Origin: an uncultured Methanosarcinales archaeon
Lineage (GTDB): Archaea; Nanobdellota; Nanobdellia; Woesearchaeales; CAYSVS01
Assembly (NCBI GenBank): GCA_964479425.1
Contig: CAYZMD010000001.1
Span: 936 to 64,935, forward strand
DNA length: 64,000 nucleotides
Reading direction: 5' to 3'
The notes under the pieces were generated by a model. It was not told the origin of the DNA. It saw only the letters and a list, made by a program, of their open reading frames with translations, and searched no databases. The position numbers were made by a program, and so were the translations under genes. The first letter of the stretch is position 1. Each line of letters starts with the position of its first letter. Positions 1-9,065 of the stretch are shown here, piece after piece.

Positions 1-3000
1 CTCATTCTAATAAACTTTACCCTTTTAATATATTTTTCATATATATATGGGGCAGCTAAAATTAAAATGAATACTAATAATAACAAAATACCAAATGGTG
101 CAGACGTACAAACGTTTTCTTTTCGTAGGAATGTTGCACAATCTTTAGGACAATTTATTTCAGTTTCTCCATTTCCACAAAATCCATTTCCACATAGGCA
201 TCCTGTAGCATCATATACTTTATCGGGGTTTACTTTTTTACCAATTATAATATATTCTTTATTACATTTAACATCCATATCGTAATATTTAATATTCCCA
301 AGAATAGCTTTATTCTCAATATCTTTATTAATTTCTTCGGCGACAATTTTTTCAATAAGTCTACGCGAAAGTGGATTATCCAATATTTCTGTATGTGTTT
401 CTTCAATATCCCAGAAATTTTCACATCTATTATTTAGGATAACATCATTTATGGATTGTGCACTTTCAATTGATACAATTCCGTCGTTTATTTCTTTATC
501 TCCAAACATTTCTAGTTTTATTAGTTCTTTCCCAAATTGAAAAGTTTTGGTTCCTGCTATAGAATAATATTTAATGTTTGGAACTATTGGCGTATTTTTT
601 CCATTAATTAAATCTTGCATTCCTGGACTATTCACGTCGACTATTGCAGTTCCTGAATTTATATTTGTTAAAAATTGACTTAGAGAAATTAACGTTTCAG
701 CTCCAGGTGTTCCTTTATTTGGAACCCCAACCAGTATTACTTTTTTTATTTTATTTAAATATGTATATGTTCCTGGTTTTTCTAAATTCACAGCATAACT
801 GTAATACAGGGCGTCTCTTGTTACTAGTCCCCCCATTGAATGTGCTACAATATATGCATAATCAAACTCGTTTGCATTGGCTTCTAAGTGATTAGCTAAT
901 TCAACAGCATTTTCTGATACTGCTTTTTCTGTTGGGTATCCAAAGGTCCAAACTTGCCATGGTTGGTTTGTTAGCCTTATATCTTTCAAAATATTTTCAA
1001 AAGTTTTAGGAGAAGACCCAAATCCGTGAACGAGTAACAAAGCATCTCTTACATAATAGTCAGGTTCATAATTTTTCTTTAATGTACTAAACTTACAGTT
1101 TGCACATATTTTTCCTATTTGAGCAATAACAATTTCTTTATTTCTGTCTAAATATTTATAAGGATTTTTTAATTTTGCAACTAGTTTATCTTGCGTTATT
1201 GTCTCTAGTGGCAACCAGGAGTCCTTTGATGTTTTTATATAAAGCTTATTGCTATTACTTTCAATAATATCTTCTTTTATCTCATCAACAGATATTATGA
1301 TTTCTTCACTCAAATTTACATCAGAAGAAATGGCAATTGGATTTCCAAGTATTTTTAATAGGCTATTTTTTGGTTCTCTCACAATATTTTTTGGTTCTCC
1401 ATAAGTAATTGAGGCTTGTTGGTTAAATTGAAGTTCAAACTCATCTTTTCTAATCCTGCTACCACTAAAGACTGTTTCTATAAATTTTTCTTGTCCCAAT
1501 CTTTTTAGATATTTACTTTGTGTACTAAACTCTTTAAACTCTTCTCCACAACTTAAAGAATTAATTTCTTCTAAATTAACTGTCTTACACTCTCCATTAC
1601 AAGCATACGCTTGAATATCTTCATAATTATTAGGCAAAGATAAGCTTAATTTTCCGCTTTGTTCGCATTTTAGTTCAAATTTGTCAATCAAAATATCATA
1701 ACCCAAAGGAATATTAAAATTTAAATCCGAAGAAAATATTTTAAAATTATTTTGATATGATTTTTTGTCTTTTATGCAAGGCATGTTTTCAACATTAACT
1801 GATTTTATGTCAATAGAGCTTTCTAGTCTCTGTTTAAAAATATCAAAAACACTTGTTTCTTTTTCATTAATTATTTGTATTTCCAGCATGACTATGTCTG
1901 AGACAATTCTTCTGAGCTTTACCCTTATGTCAAATATATCATCATCATCTAAATTAATATTAATTATTTCATTAATAGATAAACCAAAATTAAAAGGCGT
2001 ACTTGCTACGGTCATATTAATTTTATATCCAATTTTATTAATTGTTAATTGATGCTCTTTTCCTTTTACACTGAAATTTCTACTTTCAAACTCAGGAATA
2101 TTTAAAAATATTATTTTAATTCCTGTATTTGAAGGAACTTCAGTTCTTGCTTCTTTTTTACATTTATTACAAGGCCCCCCACAGTCAGTTTTTTTCTCTC
2201 CTTGATTTTTTAATCCATCATTACATGTAGCAAGGCATGGCTGGCACGATCCCCCACAATCAGCACCAGTCTCGCCTTGATTTTTAATATTGTCTGTACA
2301 AGTCCCAATACCTGTACACATTCCATTAACACAAATATCTCCATTATTAGGACATCCGCAACTAGAACAATCATTAATTAGATTTAAATTAAAACCACAA
2401 TATTTTGGTTTTTCTATACTGCACTTTTCAACTTTAGTTCCATCTTTACATTCTAAAAAACATGCAGGACAACTTCCTCCACAATCTACATCGAGTTCAT
2501 CCCCATTTTTAATTTTATCTTTGCAGCTAGCGCAAGGTAGACAATTTCCTCCACAATCAATTCCAAGTTCATTTCCATTCTTTACATTGTCTGTACAGCT
2601 AGACATAACACATAAATTTGCAACACAATAATTGCTCAGGCAATCGATATCTAAAGAACAAGTTCTTCCAGCTCCACAGGCTTGACATGGACCTCCACAG
2701 TCTGTGTCCGTTTCTTCCTGATTTAAAATGGTGTCACTACAGCTTGCTTGTCTACATGTATTATCTTTGCAAAATAGACTTAAGCAGTCATAATTTATGT
2801 TACATTTTTCTCCAACTTTACAAGCATAACAACTTCCTCCACAATCTGTGGATGTTTCATCTCCGTTAAAAACTAAATCATTGCAACTTGCTTCTAAGCA
2901 TTTTCCATTGCTACAAAAATTAGAATTACAATCTGAATTTATATTACAGTTTTTATTTAAACTACAGGAAATACAACTTCCTCCACAATCCACATCAGTT

Positions 3001-5795
3001 TCACCCTGATTTAATGAATCATCTCTACAAGATGCAATTTTGCAAACATTATTTACACAATTCTTTGAATTACAATCAGTATCTATATTACAAATTTTAT
3101 CTAATGCACACTTATTACACAATCCTCCACAATCCACATCGCTTTCTTGATTATTCTTAAAATTATCTGCGCAACTTGCTGCAGAACAAGTATTACTTAT
3201 GCAATTATCATTTAAACAATCATTGTTTATATTGCAACTTTTGCCTTCATCACATTTACCACATATTCCTCCACAATCCACATCTGTTTCATCTTGATTC
3301 TGTAAAATATCTATACAGCTCGGAGTGATGCATTTGCCAAATAGACAAAAGTTATTTGAACAGTCTATGTTTGAATTGCATTTATCATTGTCACTACATT
3401 TATTACAACTTCCACCACAATCTACATCACTTTCATCCTGATTTATTATATTGTCAGTACAACTTTCTTGAGTACAAATATTATTTACGCAATTGTTTGT
3501 TATACAATCATCATTTATACTACAACCTTTTCCTGTCTGACACTTGGAACATATTACTCCTCCACAATCTATAAATGTCTCATCTTGATTTTTATTATTA
3601 TCTGTACAAGACGCTGTGTTACATATGTTATTCAAGCAATAATTACTTGCGCAATCTGTACTTATAGAACAACTTTTTCCAAAACCACACCCAATACATA
3701 ATCCTCCACAATCCATATCGCTTTCGTCTTGATTCAATAAATAATCAGAACAACTTTCTTCAAGGCAGATGTTATTAATACATAGGTTGGTCAGGCAATC
3801 ATCGTTTATGCTACAGCTTTTTCCAACATTACATTCGTTACAATTTCCTCCACAATCTACATCACTTTCTCCATAGTCTTTGATGTCATTATTACATCCT
3901 GATTCTACACACTTACCATTCATACACAATCCTGAAGTACAATCCATACTCCATGTACAATCCTTTCCTATATTGCATCCATCACATATTCCTCCACAAT
4001 CTACATCTGTTTCATCTTGATTTCTTATCCCATCACTACATGTTGGGATGTATGTACAACTTTTACTCTCACTATTGTCTCCTGTACAATCATTATTATC
4101 GGGACACAAACAACTACAGCTTCTTATTTGTGTGCCGCCAGGCAAGCAAGTTTCCCAATCACTACAATCCCAACTAGCAGAGCATATTTCTATTTCTGGT
4201 GGTTCATCATTTCCTCCTCCCCCCCCTCCTCCTGTAGATTGAGGTTCATTATCAATTGTAAATCCATGCAAGGTATTTATTTCATTTTCTCCTAAATCTC
4301 TACATACATAAAATTGAAAGTAAGTGTTCCCTTGTAAAACCGTTCTATTTACTTTGTGTAAAGTTCCATTAGACCATGTAAAATTAGCTCCATTTGTAAA
4401 ATTAAAAACAGAAAACCCATATTCACAATTTGCAAATTCGTTAGTAGATATTGTTAATTCTACTCTTGTTGTTGTATATGATAGAGTAACTCCACTATTT
4501 GGATTTTGTATACTTATTATTGGAGTAGTTGTATCAATAGTAAAATTTACATTTGTTGTATTAAGATTGCCTACGGTGTCGTTAGCATAAGCTAAAAGAG
4601 TATTGCTTCCTTCACTAAATATTCTATAAACAGGATTTGTGTATGTTTCATTTTCAGTTCCATTAAAGAACCAAATATTATTTCCATTGCTTGTTATATT
4701 TACTAGAACAGTTACATTATTGTATGTAATATTTTCTGGGGAATTTATTGATATCGTCGGAGCAGTTGTGTCAAATACAATGCTATAATTATCTTCTTCA
4801 CTCCAATTGTTGTTTTCTGCAGAATCATAACCTAAACAATTCCATTCAAATGTATCTTCATAGGGTAATGTATAAGCAAAAGTTGTAGAGTTTGATACTC
4901 CTAATAAATTTGTTGTGTTAGTATGTATATTATCTTCAGTTGAATTCCATAAATAAAGTGTTAAATTAGCAATACTTGTATCATCTGTAATATTACAGTT
5001 AAATGTTTGTAATGCTGTTGAAGTAACTGTTGCATTTATAGGATTTATTAAATGGATAGTTGGATCAACTATATCTTGTTCATTCTCACTAGTTACCAAT
5101 ATCAATTCAGGAGAATAAGTAATATTTTCTTTCGAATAAAAAGAACAACTACAATTAGAATTCTGATCTCTCCATAATCCAAAAGAGATTATTTTATCTC
5201 CATTTAAAACTTCTATTGTGTAATTGGTTACGTTATATGACATTGTTACCAAAACCAATGCTAAATCTTTATTATCAATTTTTGTACCTAAATTTGGTTT
5301 ATTTGCCCATAACAAAGTACTTTCTAACCATGAATCATCATTAACTTTGTATAATGCAACTTTATTATATTGTGAATCACAGTAGACGTTTCTAACGTTC
5401 ACAACCAAATTTAAAGTTGCATTGATTATATTACTTGAGTTATAGTCTGAAATATTAAATTTTAAAAATGATTGTCTATGAAAGCTAGTGCTATCCCATT
5501 CATCATTATCAACAGTTAATGGTTCTCCGTCATGGTTTGTGTCTCCGTAGAAAATACTTCCACAATATGCATCATCTGTTGGAATAATTCTTACATTGGT
5601 TTCGCTTATTTTTGTCTCTGGAATAAAACCCATAATATTAGACATATCTTCTTTTTCATTAATTAAATTTGTAAAATTAACACTATTATTATCGACAGTT
5701 GCCATTCCCGTTATCCCTGATCCTGTAAATATCATATTCAAAAGTAGCAAAAGAATTCCCCATTCCATGATTTCTTCTACTATTTTTTTATTCAT
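1..5795 (-). CDS. Giant secreted/membrane-anchored multidomain surface protein (partial, C-terminus beyond window start): signal peptide, NxS/T-rich region, poly-Gly hinge, ~13 Cys-rich 48-aa repeats, lipase-like alpha/beta-hydrolase domain, C-terminal TM anchor
   Basis: ATG at 5795-5793 overlaps the stop of the upstream gene (ATGA). By-eye translation runs without a stop to position 1, with frame consistent at both ends. The ORF track lists no minus ORF here, which is expected only if the ORF is open at the window edge. N-term MNKKIVEEIMEWGILLLLLNMIFTGSG. Repeats carry DVDCGG. LLVHGFG lies at ~1018-1035 and GxSxG AHSMGG at ~830-847. C-terminal TM APFGILLLLVFILILAAPYIY at ~50-110. Confidence 0.8.
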   Translation of the reverse strand, partial: MNKKIVEEIMEWGILLLLLNMIFTGSGITGMATVDNNSVNFTNLINEKEDMSNIMGFIPETKISETNVRIIPTDDAYCGSIFYGDTNHDGEPLTVDNDEWDSTSFHRQSFLKFNISDYNSSNIINATLNLVVNVRNVYCDSQYNKVALYKVNDDSWLESTLLWANKPNLGTKIDNKDLALVLVTMSYNVTNYTIEVLNGDKIISFGLWRDQNSNCSCSFYSKENITYSPELILVTSENEQDIVDPTIHLINPINATVTSTALQTFNCNITDDTSIANLTLYLWNSTEDNIHTNTTNLLGVSNSTTFAYTLPYEDTFEWNCLGYDSAENNNWSEEDNYSIVFDTTAPTISINSPENITYNNVTVLVNITSNGNNIWFFNGTENETYTNPVYRIFSEGSNTLLAYANDTVGNLNTTNVNFTIDTTTPIISIQNPNSGVTLSYTTTRVELTISTNEFANCEYGFSVFNFTNGANFTWSNGTLHKVNRTVLQGNTYFQFYVCRDLGENEINTLHGFTIDNEPQSTGGGGGGGNDEPPEIEICSASWDCSDWETCLPGGTQIRSCSCLCPDNNDCTGDNSESKSCTYIPTCSDGIRNQDETDVDCGGICDGCNIGKDCTWSMDCTSGLCMNGKCVESGCNNDIKDYGESDVDCGGNCNECNVGKSCSINDDCLTNLCINNICLEESCSDYLLNQDESDMDCGGLCIGCGFGKSCSISTDCASNYCLNNICNTASCTDNNKNQDETFIDCGGVICSKCQTGKGCSINDDCITNNCVNNICTQESCTDNIINQDESDVDCGGSCNKCSDNDKCNSNIDCSNNFCLFGKCITPSCIDILQNQDETDVDCGGICGKCDEGKSCNINNDCLNDNCISNTCSAASCADNFKNNQESDVDCGGLCNKCALDKICNIDTDCNSKNCVNNVCKIASCRDDSLNQGETDVDCGGSCISCSLNKNCNINSDCNSNFCSNGKCLEASCNDLVFNGDETSTDCGGSCYACKVGEKCNINYDCLSLFCKDNTCRQASCSDTILNQEETDTDCGGPCQACGAGRTCSLDIDCLSNYCVANLCVMSSCTDNVKNGNELGIDCGGNCLPCASCKDKIKNGDELDVDCGGSCPACFLECKDGTKVEKCSIEKPKYCGFNLNLINDCSSCGCPNNGDICVNGMCTGIGTCTDNIKNQGETGADCGGSCQPCLATCNDGLKNQGEKKTDCGGPCNKCKKEARTEVPSNTGIKIIFLNIPEFESRNFSVKGKEHQLTINKIGYKINMTVASTPFNFGLSINEIININLDDDDIFDIRVKLRRIVSDIVMLEIQIINEKETSVFDIFKQRLESSIDIKSVNVENMPCIKDKKSYQNNFKIFSSDLNFNIPLGYDILIDKFELKCEQSGKLSLSLPNNYEDIQAYACNGECKTVNLEEINSLSCGEEFKEFSTQSKYLKRLGQEKFIETVFSGSRIRKDEFELQFNQQASITYGEPKNIVREPKNSLLKILGNPIAISSDVNLSEEIIISVDEIKEDIIESNSNKLYIKTSKDSWLPLETITQDKLVAKLKNPYKYLDRNKEIVIAQIGKICANCKFSTLKKNYEPDYYVRDALLLVHGFGSSPKTFENILKDIRLTNQPWQVWTFGYPTEKAVSENAVELANHLEANANEFDYAYIVAHSMGGLVTRDALYYSYAVNLEKPGTYTYLNKIKKVILVGVPNKGTPGAETLISLSQFLTNINSGTAIVDVNSPGMQDLINGKNTPIVPNIKYYSIAGTKTFQFGKELIKLEMFGDKEINDGIVSIESAQSINDVILNNRCENFWDIEETHTEILDNPLSRRLIEKIVAEEINKDIENKAILGNIKYYDMDVKCNKEYIIIGKKVNPDKVYDATGCLCGNGFCGNGETEINCPKDCATFLRKENVCTSAPFGILLLLVFILILAAPYIYEKYIKRVKFIRM
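2150..4060 (-). repeat. Tandem ~144-nt (48-codon) intragenic coding repeats, about 13 copies, each encoding an 8-Cys module: SCxDNxKNQDETDVDCGGxCxKCxxGKxCxxNxDCxSNxCxNNxC
   Basis: Plus-strand motif tcctccacaatc (revcomp gattgtggagga = DCGG) recurs at ~2471, 2538, 2690, 2838, 2980, 3124, 3265, 3412, 3558, 3702, 3846 and 3994, i.e. a 141-152 nt period from 2538 onward. Confidence 0.8.
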
Positions 5796-6259
5796 TTTTT
5801 CTTTGCCCTATTATATGCTGTCCAGATTGTTTTTGGGTTTCTGTCTATCAATCTAGCAATATCTGTAAATCCTAAGTCATATTCTTTTTTTAGAAATACT
5901 GACATTGATTCTAAAGCAGATAATTTTTTCTTAAAAAACATTTTAATAGGAATATCAAAATCAGAATCATAAACGGTTATTTTATCTTTATTTTTTGCAT
6001 TATTATATGTTGTCCATATTGTTCTGTCGTCTCTATTCAAAATCTTAGCAATTTGACTATATTTATATTTACAATTTTCTTTAAGATATTTAACAACACT
6101 TTCTAGTATACTTAATTCTTTTGTAAAAGCAGATAAAGGAATTTTTTCTCTTCTTTCTTTTAATGAATTTGATTTGTTACTTAATTTTTTAAGAAGCATT
6201 TCTATTAATACCTCTTTATCTACGTTCTCTAGAACTTTTGCAATATTCTCTTTTTTCAT
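5792..6259 (-). CDS. Tandem helix-turn-helix domain protein (two ~45-aa HTH repeats, sigma-70 region 4/LuxR-like), putative DNA-binding regulator
   Basis: Internal duplication LSxLESxVKYLKE...IAKILNRDDRTIWTTYNNAK and LSALESMSVFLKK...IARLIDRNPKTIWTAYNRAKKK. Its stop overlaps the start of the giant gene (tcat at 5792-5795). Confidence 0.55.
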   Translation of the reverse strand: MKKENIAKVLENVDKEVLIEMLLKKLSNKSNSLKERREKIPLSAFTKELSILESVVKYLKENCKYKYSQIAKILNRDDRTIWTTYNNAKNKDKITVYDSDFDIPIKMFFKKKLSALESMSVFLKKEYDLGFTDIARLIDRNPKTIWTAYNRAKKK

Positions 6260-6279
6260 TAAACATTATTATTTTTGTA

Positions 6280-6300
6280 GTTTTTATATATAAATATTTC
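6280..6300 (-). promoter_or_regulatory. Putative archaeal TATA/BRE promoter for the HTH-giant surface protein operon
   Basis: Minus-strand sequence aaatatttatatataaaaactac lies ~25-40 nt upstream of the ATG at 6259, in an AT-rich 233-bp intergenic region. Confidence 0.3.
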
Positions 6301-6492
6301 CTTATTTCATAGAATAATTACTTAATTTATAGGTTATCCTATCGATTCTTACTGTATTTATATCAATATTTACCTATTATGTTATGTTTCTATCCTATTC
6401 TATAATAATTTCCACATTTTTATATATGTATATAACATGTTTTCGTATGTATTTGTCTTAAATTAGGATAATAAATACTTAATATGTAAGAA

Positions 6493-7716
6493 TTAAATTA
6501 CATTTATACAATCTGTTGCTAAATTCCCAATTACAATTTCCTGTTCTTGTTGAACATTTTTGTCAATGCCTATTACGTTGTTTAAGACATTAATCATCTT
6601 TCCAGAAATCATAAAATCTTTGATTGGTTTTCCATTATATATTGCATGTTCTACTTGCACGGAAAAATCAGAAGTTAATGAATTACCTGTATGTGCTCCC
6701 ATAATAGATTCTATTAATAATCCGTTTGGAATTTTATTTTTGTCTGAATTAAAGTATACATTGCTAAAGGCAATTCCTCCACCAGAACTATTTCCTGTTG
6801 TTTTTGTCTTTGTATGTGTTGCAGTATTATGATCGAAAATAAAATTTTTCAATTTTCCTTTATCTACTATGCACGTATTTTTACTTGCTGTTCCTTCATC
6901 GTCAAAACTACTTGCTTGCATTCCTTTTAATCCATTATCATGTATAGATATATTTTTCATAATATTTTCATTAATTTTTCCACAGAACAAACTTTTGTGT
7001 TTTTCTACATTCTTTCCATTAAAATTATCAAGTAAACTATATTTTGCTAATTCTGAAAAAACTTCAGGGTTTAAAATTACAACTTTTGGTTTATCACTTA
7101 ATTTTTTAGCATTAAGATAAAACAATGTTTTTTCGTTTACTCCTTGTCCCCAGCCACTTGATGTAAAAAACTGATTGCTTTCTTTGTCGTCAAACCAACT
7201 ACAGACCTTTCCTTTATGTTTTGCAACTGTACTTACTCCAATTCCATATTCTGTAGATTTTTCGCAGATATTTATTCCATTAGAATTAAGAATACAATTT
7301 TCGCTTACATTTGTTTGAACAGCCCCACTACTTAAAATTACATTATCTTTAACAATATCTTTTATTATTTTTCTTGCTTCGTCTACTAATATACTTTCGT
7401 CGATATTTGCAAGTTTTTTATCAAAGTTATTTATTTTCTTATATTTGTCTAGGTTGGGTATTCCATAAAAATATTCTTTATTTGCATTTAATTTTGCAAT
7501 TTTGATTGCTTTTTTTACTAATTCTTTATTGAGTTTATTTCCGCTTGCAAACCCTTCTTTATTATTTTTCCAAACCCTTATTGAATATAATGCTGTTTCT
7601 TTTTCCTGAAATGATTTAATGCTATTATTTTCTATGCTTAGAGATTTTTCTTGATTTTTATCTATATTTACTTGAATATGATCTACAAAATTATCTGCAT
7701 ATTTGATTACATTCAT
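6493..7716 (-). CDS. tldE: TldE/PmbA family metalloprotease component
   Basis: PmbA/TldD-fold C-terminal region (GAHTGNSLTSDFSV...). The internal ATG (MNVIKYADNF) gives an ATGA overlap with the tldD stop. The ORF-track start at 7797 is an upstream extension. Confidence 0.7.
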   Translation of the reverse strand: MNVIKYADNFVDHIQVNIDKNQEKSLSIENNSIKSFQEKETALYSIRVWKNNKEGFASGNKLNKELVKKAIKIAKLNANKEYFYGIPNLDKYKKINNFDKKLANIDESILVDEARKIIKDIVKDNVILSSGAVQTNVSENCILNSNGINICEKSTEYGIGVSTVAKHKGKVCSWFDDKESNQFFTSSGWGQGVNEKTLFYLNAKKLSDKPKVVILNPEVFSELAKYSLLDNFNGKNVEKHKSLFCGKINENIMKNISIHDNGLKGMQASSFDDEGTASKNTCIVDKGKLKNFIFDHNTATHTKTKTTGNSSGGGIAFSNVYFNSDKNKIPNGLLIESIMGAHTGNSLTSDFSVQVEHAIYNGKPIKDFMISGKMINVLNNVIGIDKNVQQEQEIVIGNLATDCINVI

Positions 7717-9065
7717 TGTCCGCCCACCCTTGCTTTTTTTATTAGTATGCTTGGACAAGGACCATATACTGGAACGTATTGTCCTCCTTTTCCACAATGT
7801 CCTGCAAAACTAGGTTCATATTCGTCAGATATCATTGTAATATCATTAAGTATTTTTAAGGTATTTCCTGATAGGCTAACTCCTTTTAATCTTCCTTTAA
7901 GTTCTCCTCTTTCTATGGCAAAGCCTTCTTGTGCTGAGAATGTAAAATTACCAGTTGTTGGATCAACCTGTCCTCCAACGCTTCCTTTTAGAAAAACTCC
8001 TTTCTTTACATTGGAAATAATATCTTCAAATTTATCTTTACCCTTTTTTATATATGTATTTGACATTCTTACTTGAGGCAAAAATGATGCAGATTGAGCT
8101 CTTGCATTTCCTGTTGGCATTGCGTTTAATTTTGCTGCAGTTTCTCTTGAATGCATAAGACCTTTAAGAATTCCTTTTTCAATTAATGTCGTTTTTTGTG
8201 CAGGTATTCCTTCATCATCGTAAAAATAACTACCCCATAAATTAGGCATTGTTGCATCATCATATATATTAATGAATTCTGGAGCTATTTTTTTTCCGCT
8301 TAGTCCTTTTAGACAGCTACTATTTTGTAAAATTTGATCTGCTTCTGCTGCATGCCCTAGTGCTTCATGTATAAAAACATCAGTCAAGGAGCCGTCACAA
8401 ACAACAGGTATATTTCCTGCTTTTGAATGCTTGGCGTTTAACATTTCTAGCGCCGTTTGTGTTGAGCTTTTTATTAACTCTGGCATTCTTTTTGTAACTT
8501 CATATCCTCTTAATTCCCCAACTCTTCCAAAGAAGTTCTCTATTTTATCATTCTTTTTTGTTGTTACTGAAGCTCCAATCATAGTATACTTTAGATTTTG
8601 TTGTATTTCGCTACCTTCAGAATTTACAAATAATAGTTTTTTATCAATTTCATTATAATTAACTAGACAGTTTTTTACTTTATCGTCTTTAATTTTGCTA
8701 TTTTTTAGGACTAGTTTCTTTTTTTCTTCTAGTGTAACATTTTGATTATCTATTTTCCATTTACTTTTTACATTCTTTTTTATTCTTTTTGTTTCAGCGA
8801 ATTCTCTTTTTTCTGTAGTATTTTTATCCATTAATTTAGCAATTTTTAACGCTTTTTTAACTCCTTTCTCAATATTATTAGAATATACAAAACCTTGTCC
8901 ATTGCCAGATATTATTCTAATGGAACTTCCTTGTCTTTGATTAGAATCAAAATTCTTGATATGGTTGTTCCAAGCAGAAACAGATAAATTATCTATATCT
9001 TGTCTTCTAAAGTCCCAATATTTAACATTCTCTTTTTTTAATAGTTTAGAAATTTTATTATACAT
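7713..9065 (-). CDS. tldD: TldD metalloprotease
   Basis: HEALGHAAEAD (HExxxH) zinc motif. TldD-like length (450 aa). Immediately upstream of the tldE/pmbA partner. Confidence 0.75.
   Translation of the reverse strand: MYNKISKLLKKENVKYWDFRRQDIDNLSVSAWNNHIKNFDSNQRQGSSIRIISGNGQGFVYSNNIEKGVKKALKIAKLMDKNTTEKREFAETKRIKKNVKSKWKIDNQNVTLEEKKKLVLKNSKIKDDKVKNCLVNYNEIDKKLLFVNSEGSEIQQNLKYTMIGASVTTKKNDKIENFFGRVGELRGYEVTKRMPELIKSSTQTALEMLNAKHSKAGNIPVVCDGSLTDVFIHEALGHAAEADQILQNSSCLKGLSGKKIAPEFINIYDDATMPNLWGSYFYDDEGIPAQKTTLIEKGILKGLMHSRETAAKLNAMPTGNARAQSASFLPQVRMSNTYIKKGKDKFEDIISNVKKGVFLKGSVGGQVDPTTGNFTFSAQEGFAIERGELKGRLKGVSLSGNTLKILNDITMISDEYEPSFAGHCGKGGQYVPVYGPCPSILIKKARVGGQ

Follow-up and report, generated by a model that had tools for sequence, protein, structure and literature searches.

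The question raised by the present locus is what a small HTH protein does directly ahead of, and physically overlapping with, the gene for a giant surface protein. DPANN archaea are symbionts of tiny size that have mostly not been cultured. Their giant surface proteins are thought to mediate host attachment, and to our knowledge nothing is known about the control of these costly genes. The locus lies in a stretch of 64,000 nucleotides from an uncultured archaeon of the Woesearchaeales, which is called the window here. The HTH gene (5792..6259, minus strand; ATG at 6259, TGA at 5794-5792) encodes 155 aa, and its stop overlaps the start of the giant gene (ATG at 5795-5793) in a 4-nt ATGA (5792..5795, minus strand), exactly as claimed in a preliminary description of this DNA. 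That description had proposed either a dedicated regulator co-expressed with the giant gene or a sigma-r4-like factor for this one transcription unit.

In the AF2 model the whole of the protein is taken up by an N-terminal helical region and a pair of region-4 units. The two HTH repeats, supported by an internal repeat test and by covariation, occupy aa 39-92 (5984..6145, minus strand; recognition helix NRDDRTIWTTYNNAK) and aa 102-155 (5795..5956, minus strand; recognition helix DRNPKTIWTAYNRAK). They are 45% identical over 47 aa, with an internal alignment score of 114 compared with 23 ± 4.4 for shuffled sequences (z = 20), and the Pfam model Sigma70_r4_2 (PF08281) is matched in two stretches with 35.1 bits (cutoff 25.7), which places the protein in this family at the domain level and bears out the two diverged HTH copies of the preliminary description. 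The N-terminal region (aa 1-37; 6149..6259, minus strand), defined from AF2, the family alignment and the fused forms described below, presented helices at residues 4-12 and 15-36 with lower pLDDT (65-82), and its length and sequence vary across the family alignment; it corresponds to the linker that follows a polybasic stretch in the fused homologues. The window protein is without a hydrophobic segment and is therefore not a transmembrane transcription regulator, in which a TM segment and the DNA-binding domain share one polypeptide.

The giant gene (1..5795, minus strand) is open to the left window edge and its translation comprises at least 1931 aa. The product starts with a signal anchor with an ITG motif, preceded by only ~12 residues, and contains CBM96 and a DUF7379 alpha/beta-hydrolase domain of lipase-like type, both above the Pfam threshold, as well as ~20 Cys-rich repeats and a C-terminal TM segment. 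The Ig-like Big_13 match was weak and sub-threshold (18.6 bits; cutoff 27). In homologues of the C-terminal 400 aa, DUF676, PGAP1(-like) and DUF7379 domains are present. The earlier label of adhesin/lipase is a fair one. The C-terminal tail of the protein lies beyond the window.

The HTH protein belongs to a DPANN-wide family with ~2,000 cluster representatives. Among the stand-alone members with readable downstream sequence (n = 68), the stop overlaps the next gene in 67, with an offset of exactly -4 in 24. The partner nearly always encodes a membrane or secreted protein, with an N-terminal hydrophobic segment in 58 of the 68, and at least 22 partners reach 1000 aa or more, compared with 3.3% of the ORFs in the same loci. 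In the ortholog L001, TyrRS, TldD, PmbA, the HTH gene and a giant gene (5021 aa) follow one another with the same 4-nt overlap. The association extends to fusion: giant surface proteins with the HTH module as their C-terminal tail are encoded in at least 13 fetched loci and are also numerous in the database, where they reach 5919 aa. In the fused forms a hydrophobic segment is followed by a polybasic stretch and then by the HTH module, as in L041, L074, P0257 and P0208, which also present a TM segment near the N-terminus; the hydrophobic segment ahead of the HTH module is short (~12-18 residues), and the positive-inside pattern, the only basis for this assignment, suggests that it spans the membrane. 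The conserved overlap across dozens of divergent DPANN genomes, the fusions and the operator at the family's own promoters strongly support, by sequence comparison, the earlier proposal of a dedicated regulator co-expressed with the giant gene.

This operator is a 17-bp palindrome, TACTTA-CATAA-TAAGTA, in the family promoters (TTCTTA-CATAT-TAAGTA in the window). Allowing up to 3 mismatches, 188 consensus matches were found in 1.16 Mb against ~25 expected, an enrichment that is partly circular because the upstream regions counted are also those in which the consensus had first been recognised by eye. The matches within 300 bp upstream of family genes, which represent 1.9% of the sequence, numbered 143, corresponding to 6.6 per kb compared with 0.039 per kb elsewhere (~170-fold); 58 of 71 loci carried at least one match, and several of the remaining matches lie directly ahead of the start codons of fused giant genes. 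The operator is present in 1-4 copies, which flank TATA on either side. Across the family, the TATA octamer precedes the start codon by a median of 39 nt. Measured from the TATA start, proximal sites begin 10-14 nt downstream in 24 cases and the distribution of distal sites has its peak 30-45 nt upstream, the usual layout being one site between TATA and start codon and another just upstream of BRE/TATA. The magnitude of the enrichment, the fixed register and the covariation described below are not explained by circularity. Since the scan covered 1.16 Mb of fetched loci, the regulon may extend beyond the own operon.

In the window, the spacer between the HTH gene and the upstream PmbA/TldD gene covers 6260-6492 (233 bp). 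The preliminary description had placed a TATA-like element ~30 nt upstream of the ATG; it was found as TTTATATA (6287..6294, minus strand; -35 to -28 from the ATG), directly preceded by a BRE-like GGAAATA (6295-6301, minus strand), and the block GAAAnnTTTATAWA is conserved in a three-way alignment of the window with the orthologous loci L001 and L094. The TATA position implies an HTH-gene mRNA that would be leaderless or have a very short leader. Predicted operator site 1, TTCTTACATATTAAGTA (6476..6492, minus strand), lies 217-233 nt upstream of the ATG, immediately after the stop of the PmbA/TldD gene. With a PWM that is partly circular, being built from consensus-selected sites, it was the top match in the 64-kb window (22.3, followed by 14.1 for the runner-up); its 17-mer has just one other match in the 64 kb at up to 3 mismatches and is identical in the spacers of L001 and L094. 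Operator-like site 2, AACCTATAAATTAAGTA (6319..6335, minus strand), begins 41 nt ahead of the TATA start, i.e., at the canonical distal position, with a PWM score of 10.0 (7th best in the 64 kb). Its right half TAAGTA is intact and its left half degenerate, the orthologous versions being TTCTTATAAATTAAGTA in L001 and TTCTTACAAATTAAGTA in L094. Only upstream sites were found in the window spacer, with no operator between TATA and ATG. The lack of this proximal site, the distance of the strongest site (>200 bp upstream) and the degenerate left half of site 2 make the predicted local circuit weaker than, and different from, the family norm.

The spacer also contains the two TATCCTAT direct repeats to which attention had been drawn earlier (6335..6342 and 6391..6398, plus strand), the first of which abuts site 2 and shares one base with it (6335). 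The repeat exists, but it does not exceed the chance expectation: 5 copies occur in the whole window against 3.3 expected, ~1.3 repeated 8-mer pairs would arise by chance in a 233-bp AT-rich spacer by our own estimate, and the spacers of the orthologous loci lack it, the second copy included. It is not considered functional, and the role of conserved DNA element passes to TTCTTACATATTAAGTA and AACCTATAAATTAAGTA.

The correspondence between the two repeats and the two operator halves was followed through covariation, counted per gene and uncorrected for phylogeny; each substitution class may represent one or two independent events only. Genes with the repeat-2 helix RT[IV]W presented T at left-half position 4 (16 of 17), and those with RN[IV]W presented A (8 of 8). 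At right-half position 14, the dyad equivalent of position 4, the repeat-1 helix RT was accompanied by A (18 of 22) and RN by C or T (6 of 6). Additionally, only the right half-site has been lost in a clade with EIALAVT in repeat 1. Repeat 1 is thereby predicted to read the gene-proximal half-site TAAGTA and repeat 2 the distal half-site TTCTTA (TAAGAA when read on the complementary strand); the pairing of a K-variant of the repeat-2 helix with TTCTTA in the window, L001 and L094 is suggestive only.

The 155-aa protein is therefore best explained, with good though not full confidence, as a cytoplasmic, sequence-specific autoregulator, a pseudo-dimer in a single chain that is dedicated to the operon of the surface protein, and not as a sigma factor. 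Two HTH units of the sigma-region-4/LuxR type in one chain would each read half of the 17-bp near-palindrome. Since the sites lie at the promoter of the own operon, placed relative to BRE/TATA as expected computationally of an autoregulated archaeal transcription factor, the regulator would control its own synthesis. A leaderless transcript starting just downstream of TATA, together with the ATGA overlap, would place the giant protein on the same mRNA and under the same control. In archaeal regulators, sites that flank BRE/TATA on both sides predict negative autoregulation, and this direction would apply to the usual two-site layout of the family; in the window, where only upstream sites are present, regulation may be of either sign.

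Compared with the LuxR/FixJ/GerE effectors (NarL, GerE, RcsB, TraR), which are homodimers, the dimer is here hard-wired as a tandem duplication in a single chain, which leaves the two half-sites free to diverge independently. In contrast with these effectors, the window protein is without a receiver or ligand domain, and the Pfam GerE/LuxR model (PF00196) had no match in the 155 aa. Sigma-70 region 4 itself (PF08281; ECF sigma factors, sigma-28 FliA) targets a -35 element, whereas two such units stand here in tandem without regions 2 and 3, and the predicted target is a 17-bp dyad flanking TATA in a host with TBP and TFB, the factors with which archaeal RNA polymerase works.

These differences weigh against a genuine sigma-like initiation factor, derived from bacteria, that would recruit RNA polymerase to this one promoter, a reading that agrees with the 'sigma-70' annotation of such genes in DPANN surveys but is very improbable. 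No Sigma70_r2 match was found with Pfam, region 3 is absent, both units are region-4-like, and the scores for TIGR02937 (13.8; cutoff 42.9), SigX4 (26.3; cutoff 323) and SigJ (25.9; cutoff 271) are far too low for membership in the sigma-70 family of sigma factors. The promoters carry ordinary archaeal BRE/TATA elements, and the operator is dyad-symmetric, in 1-4 copies on either side of TATA rather than at a fixed -35-like position; the sigma-r4-like alternative of the preliminary description is consequently not supported. The 'sigma-70' family fam00359, prevalent in Woesearchaeota, has been treated as bacterial-type sigma factors, although no anti-sigma factor was identified and the mechanism was stated to be unclear (Castelle et al. 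2021, PMC8204110). Being likewise Woesearchaeota-rich and classified as sigma-70, the window family is probably the same or an overlapping gene set, for which the tandem region-4-only architecture, the tie to giant surface proteins by linkage or by fusion, and the specific operator are put forward here in place of a sigma factor. Equally doubtful is an accessory DNA binder of mobile or recombining cassettes, e.g., a paired-HTH site binder of transposase- or invertase-like type, for which the sites would be recombination sites driving surface-gene variation. The 155-aa protein does match HTH_23 and HTH_38 weakly, paralogous HTH/surface-gene cassettes are clustered with same-orientation repeated sites, near-identical segments are common to fused genes and the next secreted paralogue, and small ORFs and toxin-antitoxin genes occur in some contexts. 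Nevertheless, neither the window nor most of the loci present a neighbouring transposase or recombinase gene, the sites stay in fixed register with TATA, and an ortholog with 62% identity shares the synteny of the window locus with housekeeping genes.

A membrane-sequestered regulator, comparable to an ECF sigma/anti-sigma pair, would extend the single-chain autoregulator rather than exclude it, and is regarded as possible though unlikely. A cytoplasmic part of the co-translated surface protein would keep the HTH protein inactive at the membrane, or a covalent tether would do so in the fused forms; release or activation would follow when the surface protein perceives something outside, e.g., host contact, so that the surface status would feed back on transcription. 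In gene order and in the 4-nt coupling the arrangement resembles that of sigma/anti-sigma operons, and the coupling and a membrane partner are both present in the window. A subset of the partners and all N-terminally complete fused proteins begin with a ~85-aa cytoplasmic helical domain, followed by a TM segment and a huge ectodomain, and the fusions put the HTH module after the hydrophobic and polybasic segments, i.e., on the cytoplasmic face. Membrane-bound regulators of archaeal surface structures, such as ArnR/ArnR1 (PMC6396743), and the transmembrane transcription regulators surveyed in PMC10269533 were also counted in its favor. On the other hand, many partners, that of the window included, have a short N-terminal signal anchor only, without a cytoplasmic domain there, and no anti-sigma-like domain was found by Pfam search. 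The fused homologues likewise resemble ToxR/CadC and ArnR/ArnR1 of Sulfolobus in joining a DNA-binding domain, membrane anchoring and a link to the cell surface (PMC10269533, PMC6396743), whereas the window protein is soluble, the type of DNA-binding domain is different, and the fused forms, of up to ~5900 aa, have a C-terminal HTH module and an enormous ectodomain rich in glycosylation motifs. Taken further, and with similarly low probability, the HTH module could be the output end of a DPANN-specific surface-to-genome signalling device, a Notch-like or ToxR-like one-component circuit controlling episymbiosis proteins. Giant host-facing proteins would end in the regulator, as a tail on the cytoplasmic side, or be made stoichiometrically with it, and their state (completion, insertion, host contact, cleavage) would set the occupancy of the TATA-flanking operators by the module, through a readable recognition code in which Thr or Asn of the helix would pair with A or a pyrimidine of the half-site.

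The proposed single-chain autoregulator turns puzzling 'sigma-70' genes into a concrete model, a region-4-only tandem HTH protein tied to giant surface genes by overlap or fusion, and defines a 17-bp operator, its position relative to TATA and a predicted residue-to-base recognition rule. The family is a natural case of a dimer in one chain, with specificities for the two half-sites that have diverged independently of each other, and the operator provides a route to regulon prediction across thousands of metagenome-assembled genomes. This large, uncharacterised HTH family gives a first testable handle on the control of giant surface proteins in DPANN symbionts.

The 155-aa protein is encoded on the minus strand from an ATG at 6259 to a TGA at 5794-5792, and the giant ORF starts with the ATG at 5795-5793 and continues without a stop through 1931 codons, up to the left window edge. 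The ATGA shared by the two ORFs is thus present in the sequence, as the preliminary description stated, and the same 4-nt overlap was found in the closest ortholog (locus L001). In Pfam, the small protein matched Sigma70_r4_2 in two stretches (35.1 bits against a cutoff of 25.7) and nothing else above threshold, while its scores with the NCBIfam sigma-factor models were far under the cutoffs. The proposal that it is made of two diverged HTH copies was confirmed by aligning the two units (aa ~39-92 and ~102-155), which are 45% identical over 47 aa with a score 20 standard deviations over shuffles. On sequence grounds, the protein is classed as a tandem region-4/LuxR-type HTH protein. A sigma factor identity was ruled out because region 2 is absent, and the sigma-r4-like factor that had also been suggested is dropped with it. 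The family profile, searched against solved structures, gave no meaningful match (best E of 0.022, to NifU), and the PHROGs scan gave only weak matches (E ≥ 3.6e-4), so that no viral assignment was made. Many family members of ~320-370 aa contain two complete tandem modules, with four HTH units per chain, such as the library proteins P0126 (360 aa) and P0130 (328 aa) and those encoded in the family loci L036 (9662-10645) and L074.

The HTH gene is separated by a 233-bp spacer (6260-6492) from a TldD/PmbA metallopeptidase pair (6493-9065, minus strand), beyond which lie genes for a class I tRNA synthetase of the Tyr/Trp type (Pfam tRNA-synt_1b) and for an RFC small subunit; the window is archaeal, with a G+C content of ~30%. 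The mechanical ORF of the downstream TldD/PmbA member starts with a TTG at 7797 (434 aa, 85-nt overlap with the upstream member), and the public gene call for this member on L013, an identical contig, has a later start (407 aa, 4-nt overlap). The giant protein carries a signal anchor followed by GITG, CBM96 and DUF7379 alpha/beta-hydrolase domains in Pfam, a weak, sub-threshold Big_13 (Ig-like) match and a C-terminal TM segment. Homologues of its hydrolase region also carry DUF676 and PGAP1-like domains, and its last 400 aa, used as a query to recover the complete protein, returned only five partial lipase-domain homologues. Between aa ~560 and 1290 (window ~1925-4115, minus strand) it contains ~20 tandem Cys-rich units of ~45 aa each, with the pattern C..D...NQDE[ST]D.DCGG.C..C..G..C....DC.S..C.N..C, for which no Pfam match was found; in this region, the G+C content is locally raised and the GC skew strongly negative.

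Nearly all homologues of the small protein derive from Woesearchaeota, Pacearchaeota and Nanoarchaeota (DPANN) assemblies. The family is large: the word-indexed search returned 250 family matches, 304 stretches were confirmed in one-genome-per-species contigs, and an exhaustive HMM search gave 2072 cluster representatives at E ≤ 1e-10; members are usually 140-200 aa long. Complete DPANN genomes, CP066683.1 (737 kb) for one, also code for members. The taxonomic titles of related MAG records look unreliable: many bear the title "uncultured Methanosarcinales archaeon" (L014, L016, L020, L021 and others) and carry the same DPANN-type loci as those titled Woesearchaeota, Pacearchaeota or Nanoarchaeota, and a small number go under "Patescibacteria", "Bacillota" or "bacterium" (L062, L076, L083). 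For the genomic context, 94 loci were fetched and each family copy was located with its neighbours. Downstream sequence could be read for 68 stand-alone copies, and in 67 of these the stop and the start of the next ORF on the same strand overlap, by 4 nt in 24 cases and by 7 to 40 nt in the others. The partner encoded by this next ORF has an N-terminal hydrophobic segment in 58 of the 68 cases and reaches 1000 aa or more in at least 22 (5021, 2609, 2360, >3027 and 1744 aa, for example); of the ORFs with at least 100 aa in these loci, just 3.3% are that long. The rest of the partners are small proteins, secreted or in the membrane, and in some cases a giant gene comes next. That giant genes elsewhere are also preceded by a tandem-HTH gene was borne out in L001 (62% identity), where the entire synteny is kept together with a 5021-aa gene; synteny and the 4-nt overlap are likewise kept in the third ortholog, L094, as far as its short contig extends. 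Pfam found essentially nothing besides the HTH in partners, fused giants and small downstream ORFs. A further trait of the partners is an N-terminal [ILV]-T-G signature within ~20 aa after the hydrophobic segment, seen in 32 of the 58 partners that have this segment (~4 expected), namely in the window (...LLLLLNMIFTGSGITGMATV, aa 12-30 of the giant protein, ~5706-5760, minus strand) and in 31 partners of related loci such as L019 (13060-), L032 and L086 (15157-). A lineage-specific role in processing or sorting is possible for this motif.

At least 13 loci have the tandem-HTH module as the C-terminal end of one uninterrupted giant ORF, with a length of up to 3401 aa; they include L041 (176-10381), L058 (230-10390), L060 (3536-10456), L074 (4052-10663), L076 (5693-10477), L073 (1797-6236) and L047 (4186-8304). 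The independent gene calls of the protein library contain the same architecture, with up to 5919 aa (P0134; also P0138 and P0159). Fused proteins with a complete N-terminus share a layout beginning with a helical region of ~85 aa and a TM segment, followed by a huge, NxS/T-rich ectodomain that ends in a conserved '...SGQEQlyfC...Q.YS...G.W.I' domain, and then by a short hydrophobic stretch, an Arg/Lys run, a helical linker and one or two tandem-HTH modules. They would in effect be very large membrane-tethered DNA-binding proteins, with a topology that we can only infer because the hydrophobic segment ahead of the HTH has only ~12-18 residues. Several stand-alone copies precede giants of the same family, which stop right after the 'G.W.I.V' motif; the module is therefore found with one kind of protein, ahead of it as a separate gene or attached behind it. 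This pattern speaks for a functional link between the HTH module and the giant surface protein and, with the topology predicted here, puts the HTH in the cytoplasm. At 24-81 nt beyond the fused giant genes lies a gene for a secreted protein of ~300-317 aa, a paralogue of the membrane-proximal portion of the giant ectodomain that stops inside the 'G.W.I' motif (L039 1490-2443, L018 1111-2031, L076 10503-11429, L089 3363-4295 and similar others). The ~305-aa secreted paralogues also carry the [ILV]-T-G signature ('ITGKAT'). In L039 and L018, the paralogue shares long, nearly identical stretches with the gene before it, pointing to a recent duplication or gene conversion.

A 17-bp near-palindrome, TACTTA-CATAA-TAAGTA, is common to the regions upstream of family genes in very different genomes. 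Across 86 non-redundant loci (1.16 Mb), 188 matches with up to three mismatches were counted, 14 of them perfect, against ~25 expected from composition. Of these, 143 fall in the 300 bp preceding family genes, a zone that makes up 1.9% of the sequence, giving a density of 6.6 per kb there versus 0.039 per kb elsewhere; at least one upstream match was present in 58 of 71 loci. Several matches outside this zone directly precede the start codons of fused giants (L041, L047, L060, L073, L074, L076), and the orientation of the site is nearly always that of the gene. In 47 of 73 genes, a TTTAWAWA box was present 20-110 nt before the start (median 39 nt). Relative to this box, the sites form two sharp classes, one starting 10-14 nt past its first base (24 cases) and the other 30-45 nt upstream of that base. 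In 19 genes both flanking zones (8-30 nt after and 17-60 nt before the first TATA base) are occupied. The consensus was spotted by eye in the same upstream regions and the PWM was built from sites picked with the consensus; the magnitude of the enrichment, the TATA register and the covariation between helices and half-sites are independent of these choices. Operator-like sites (AATACTTATATAATATATATT) also recur every ~750-830 bp in an ORF-poor stretch of L069 (10149, 10897, 11724), between two HTH/surface-gene cassettes of a syntenic cluster beginning with topoisomerase I, and similar ones were seen in L019 (11233), L035 (13438/14777) and L038 (13759). Small genes or RNAs may be expressed from this stretch. 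In one syntenic cluster, a conserved upstream gene of 736 aa was set aside when it proved to encode topoisomerase I, a housekeeping enzyme.

The usual recognition helix in both repeats is R-D-x-R-T-I-W-T-x-Y. Where repeat 2 reads R-N-[IV]-W, a class that takes in all the fused forms, the left half-site is TACATA or TACACA in place of TACTTA; counted per gene, with kinship ignored, position 4 is A in 8/8 such genes versus T in 16/17 genes with R-T-[IV]-W. Similarly, R-N-I-W-H in repeat 1 goes with a right half-site of AACGTA or AATGTA in place of TAAGTA, position 14 being C or T in 6/6 genes versus A in 18/22 (again per gene, kinship ignored). As positions 4 and 14 are dyad-equivalent, a given residue change goes along with one and the same base-pair change, whichever half is concerned. 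A clade with a diverged repeat 1 (N-E-I-A-L-A-V-T) has sites that keep TACTTACATAAT and have lost the right half. From this covariation, repeat 1 is predicted to read the gene-proximal half and repeat 2 the distal half. Of the computational evidence that the protein would bind these predicted sites, the covariation is the strongest. An association of an Arg-to-Lys helix variant with a TAAGAA half-site is suggestive, fitting the window clade and L011, with few counts and some counter-examples.

In the window, site 1 (TTCTTACATATTAAGTA, 6476-6492, in gene orientation) has the top PWM score of the 64 kb on both strands (22.3; next best 14.1), and a three-mismatch search with its 17-mer found only one other match there. 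Site 2 (AACCTATAAATTAAGTA, 6319-6335, PWM score 10.0) starts 41 nt upstream of the first base of the TATA box at 6287-6294, the canonical distal position, and is full in the orthologues (TTCTTA-TAAAT-TAAGTA in L001, TTCTTA-CAAAT-TAAGTA in L094). The conserved blocks in the three-way alignment of the window, L001 and L094 are the distal site, the TATA-upstream site and the BRE/TATA block. Both helices of the window protein agree with its own sites, repeat 1 (RDDRTIW) fitting TAAGTA and repeat 2 (RNPKTIW) fitting TTCTTA. The TATCCTAT direct repeats reported earlier for the spacer are real (6335-6342 and 6391-6398), but occur at chance level (5 copies in the window against 3.3 expected) and are absent from the orthologous spacers; they were rejected as the operator. 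The classical position for archaeal repressors is a site filling the gap between TATA and transcription start. The TATA-to-ATG interval of the window has no operator site, so that activation, or no more than weak repression, may be the mode of the local circuit.

The small protein is probably a single-chain pseudo-dimeric HTH regulator that would bind the predicted operators at its own promoter and, through a short-leader transcript and the ATGA junction, set the expression of the giant surface protein. True sigma function is unlikely, and the same holds for a role as a binder of recombination sites. An extension in which the activity of the regulator is coupled to the surface protein by sequestration or tethering is rather doubtful: the gene order resembles that of sigma/anti-sigma pairs, some partners have cytoplasmic N-domains and fusions exist, but the window partner has no N-terminal cytoplasmic domain.

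Autoregulated operons, region-4/LuxR-type HTH domains and membrane-bound regulators each belong to a known kind (PMC10269533, PMC6396743). A survey of DPANN proteomes found "sigma-70" genes prevalent in Woesearchaeota, did not find an anti-sigma factor and called the mechanism unclear (PMC8204110); these genes very probably are the tandem-HTH family described here. The literature search for a DPANN tandem-HTH/giant-gene system found none, only this "sigma-70" remark and the papers on membrane-bound regulators being relevant, and the literature searched gave no description of a tandem region-4-only architecture, of the systematic way in which it is coupled or fused to giant surface proteins, or of the 17-bp operator and its recognition covariation. 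The tandem-HTH system is of real interest for DPANN biology and for archaeal transcription.
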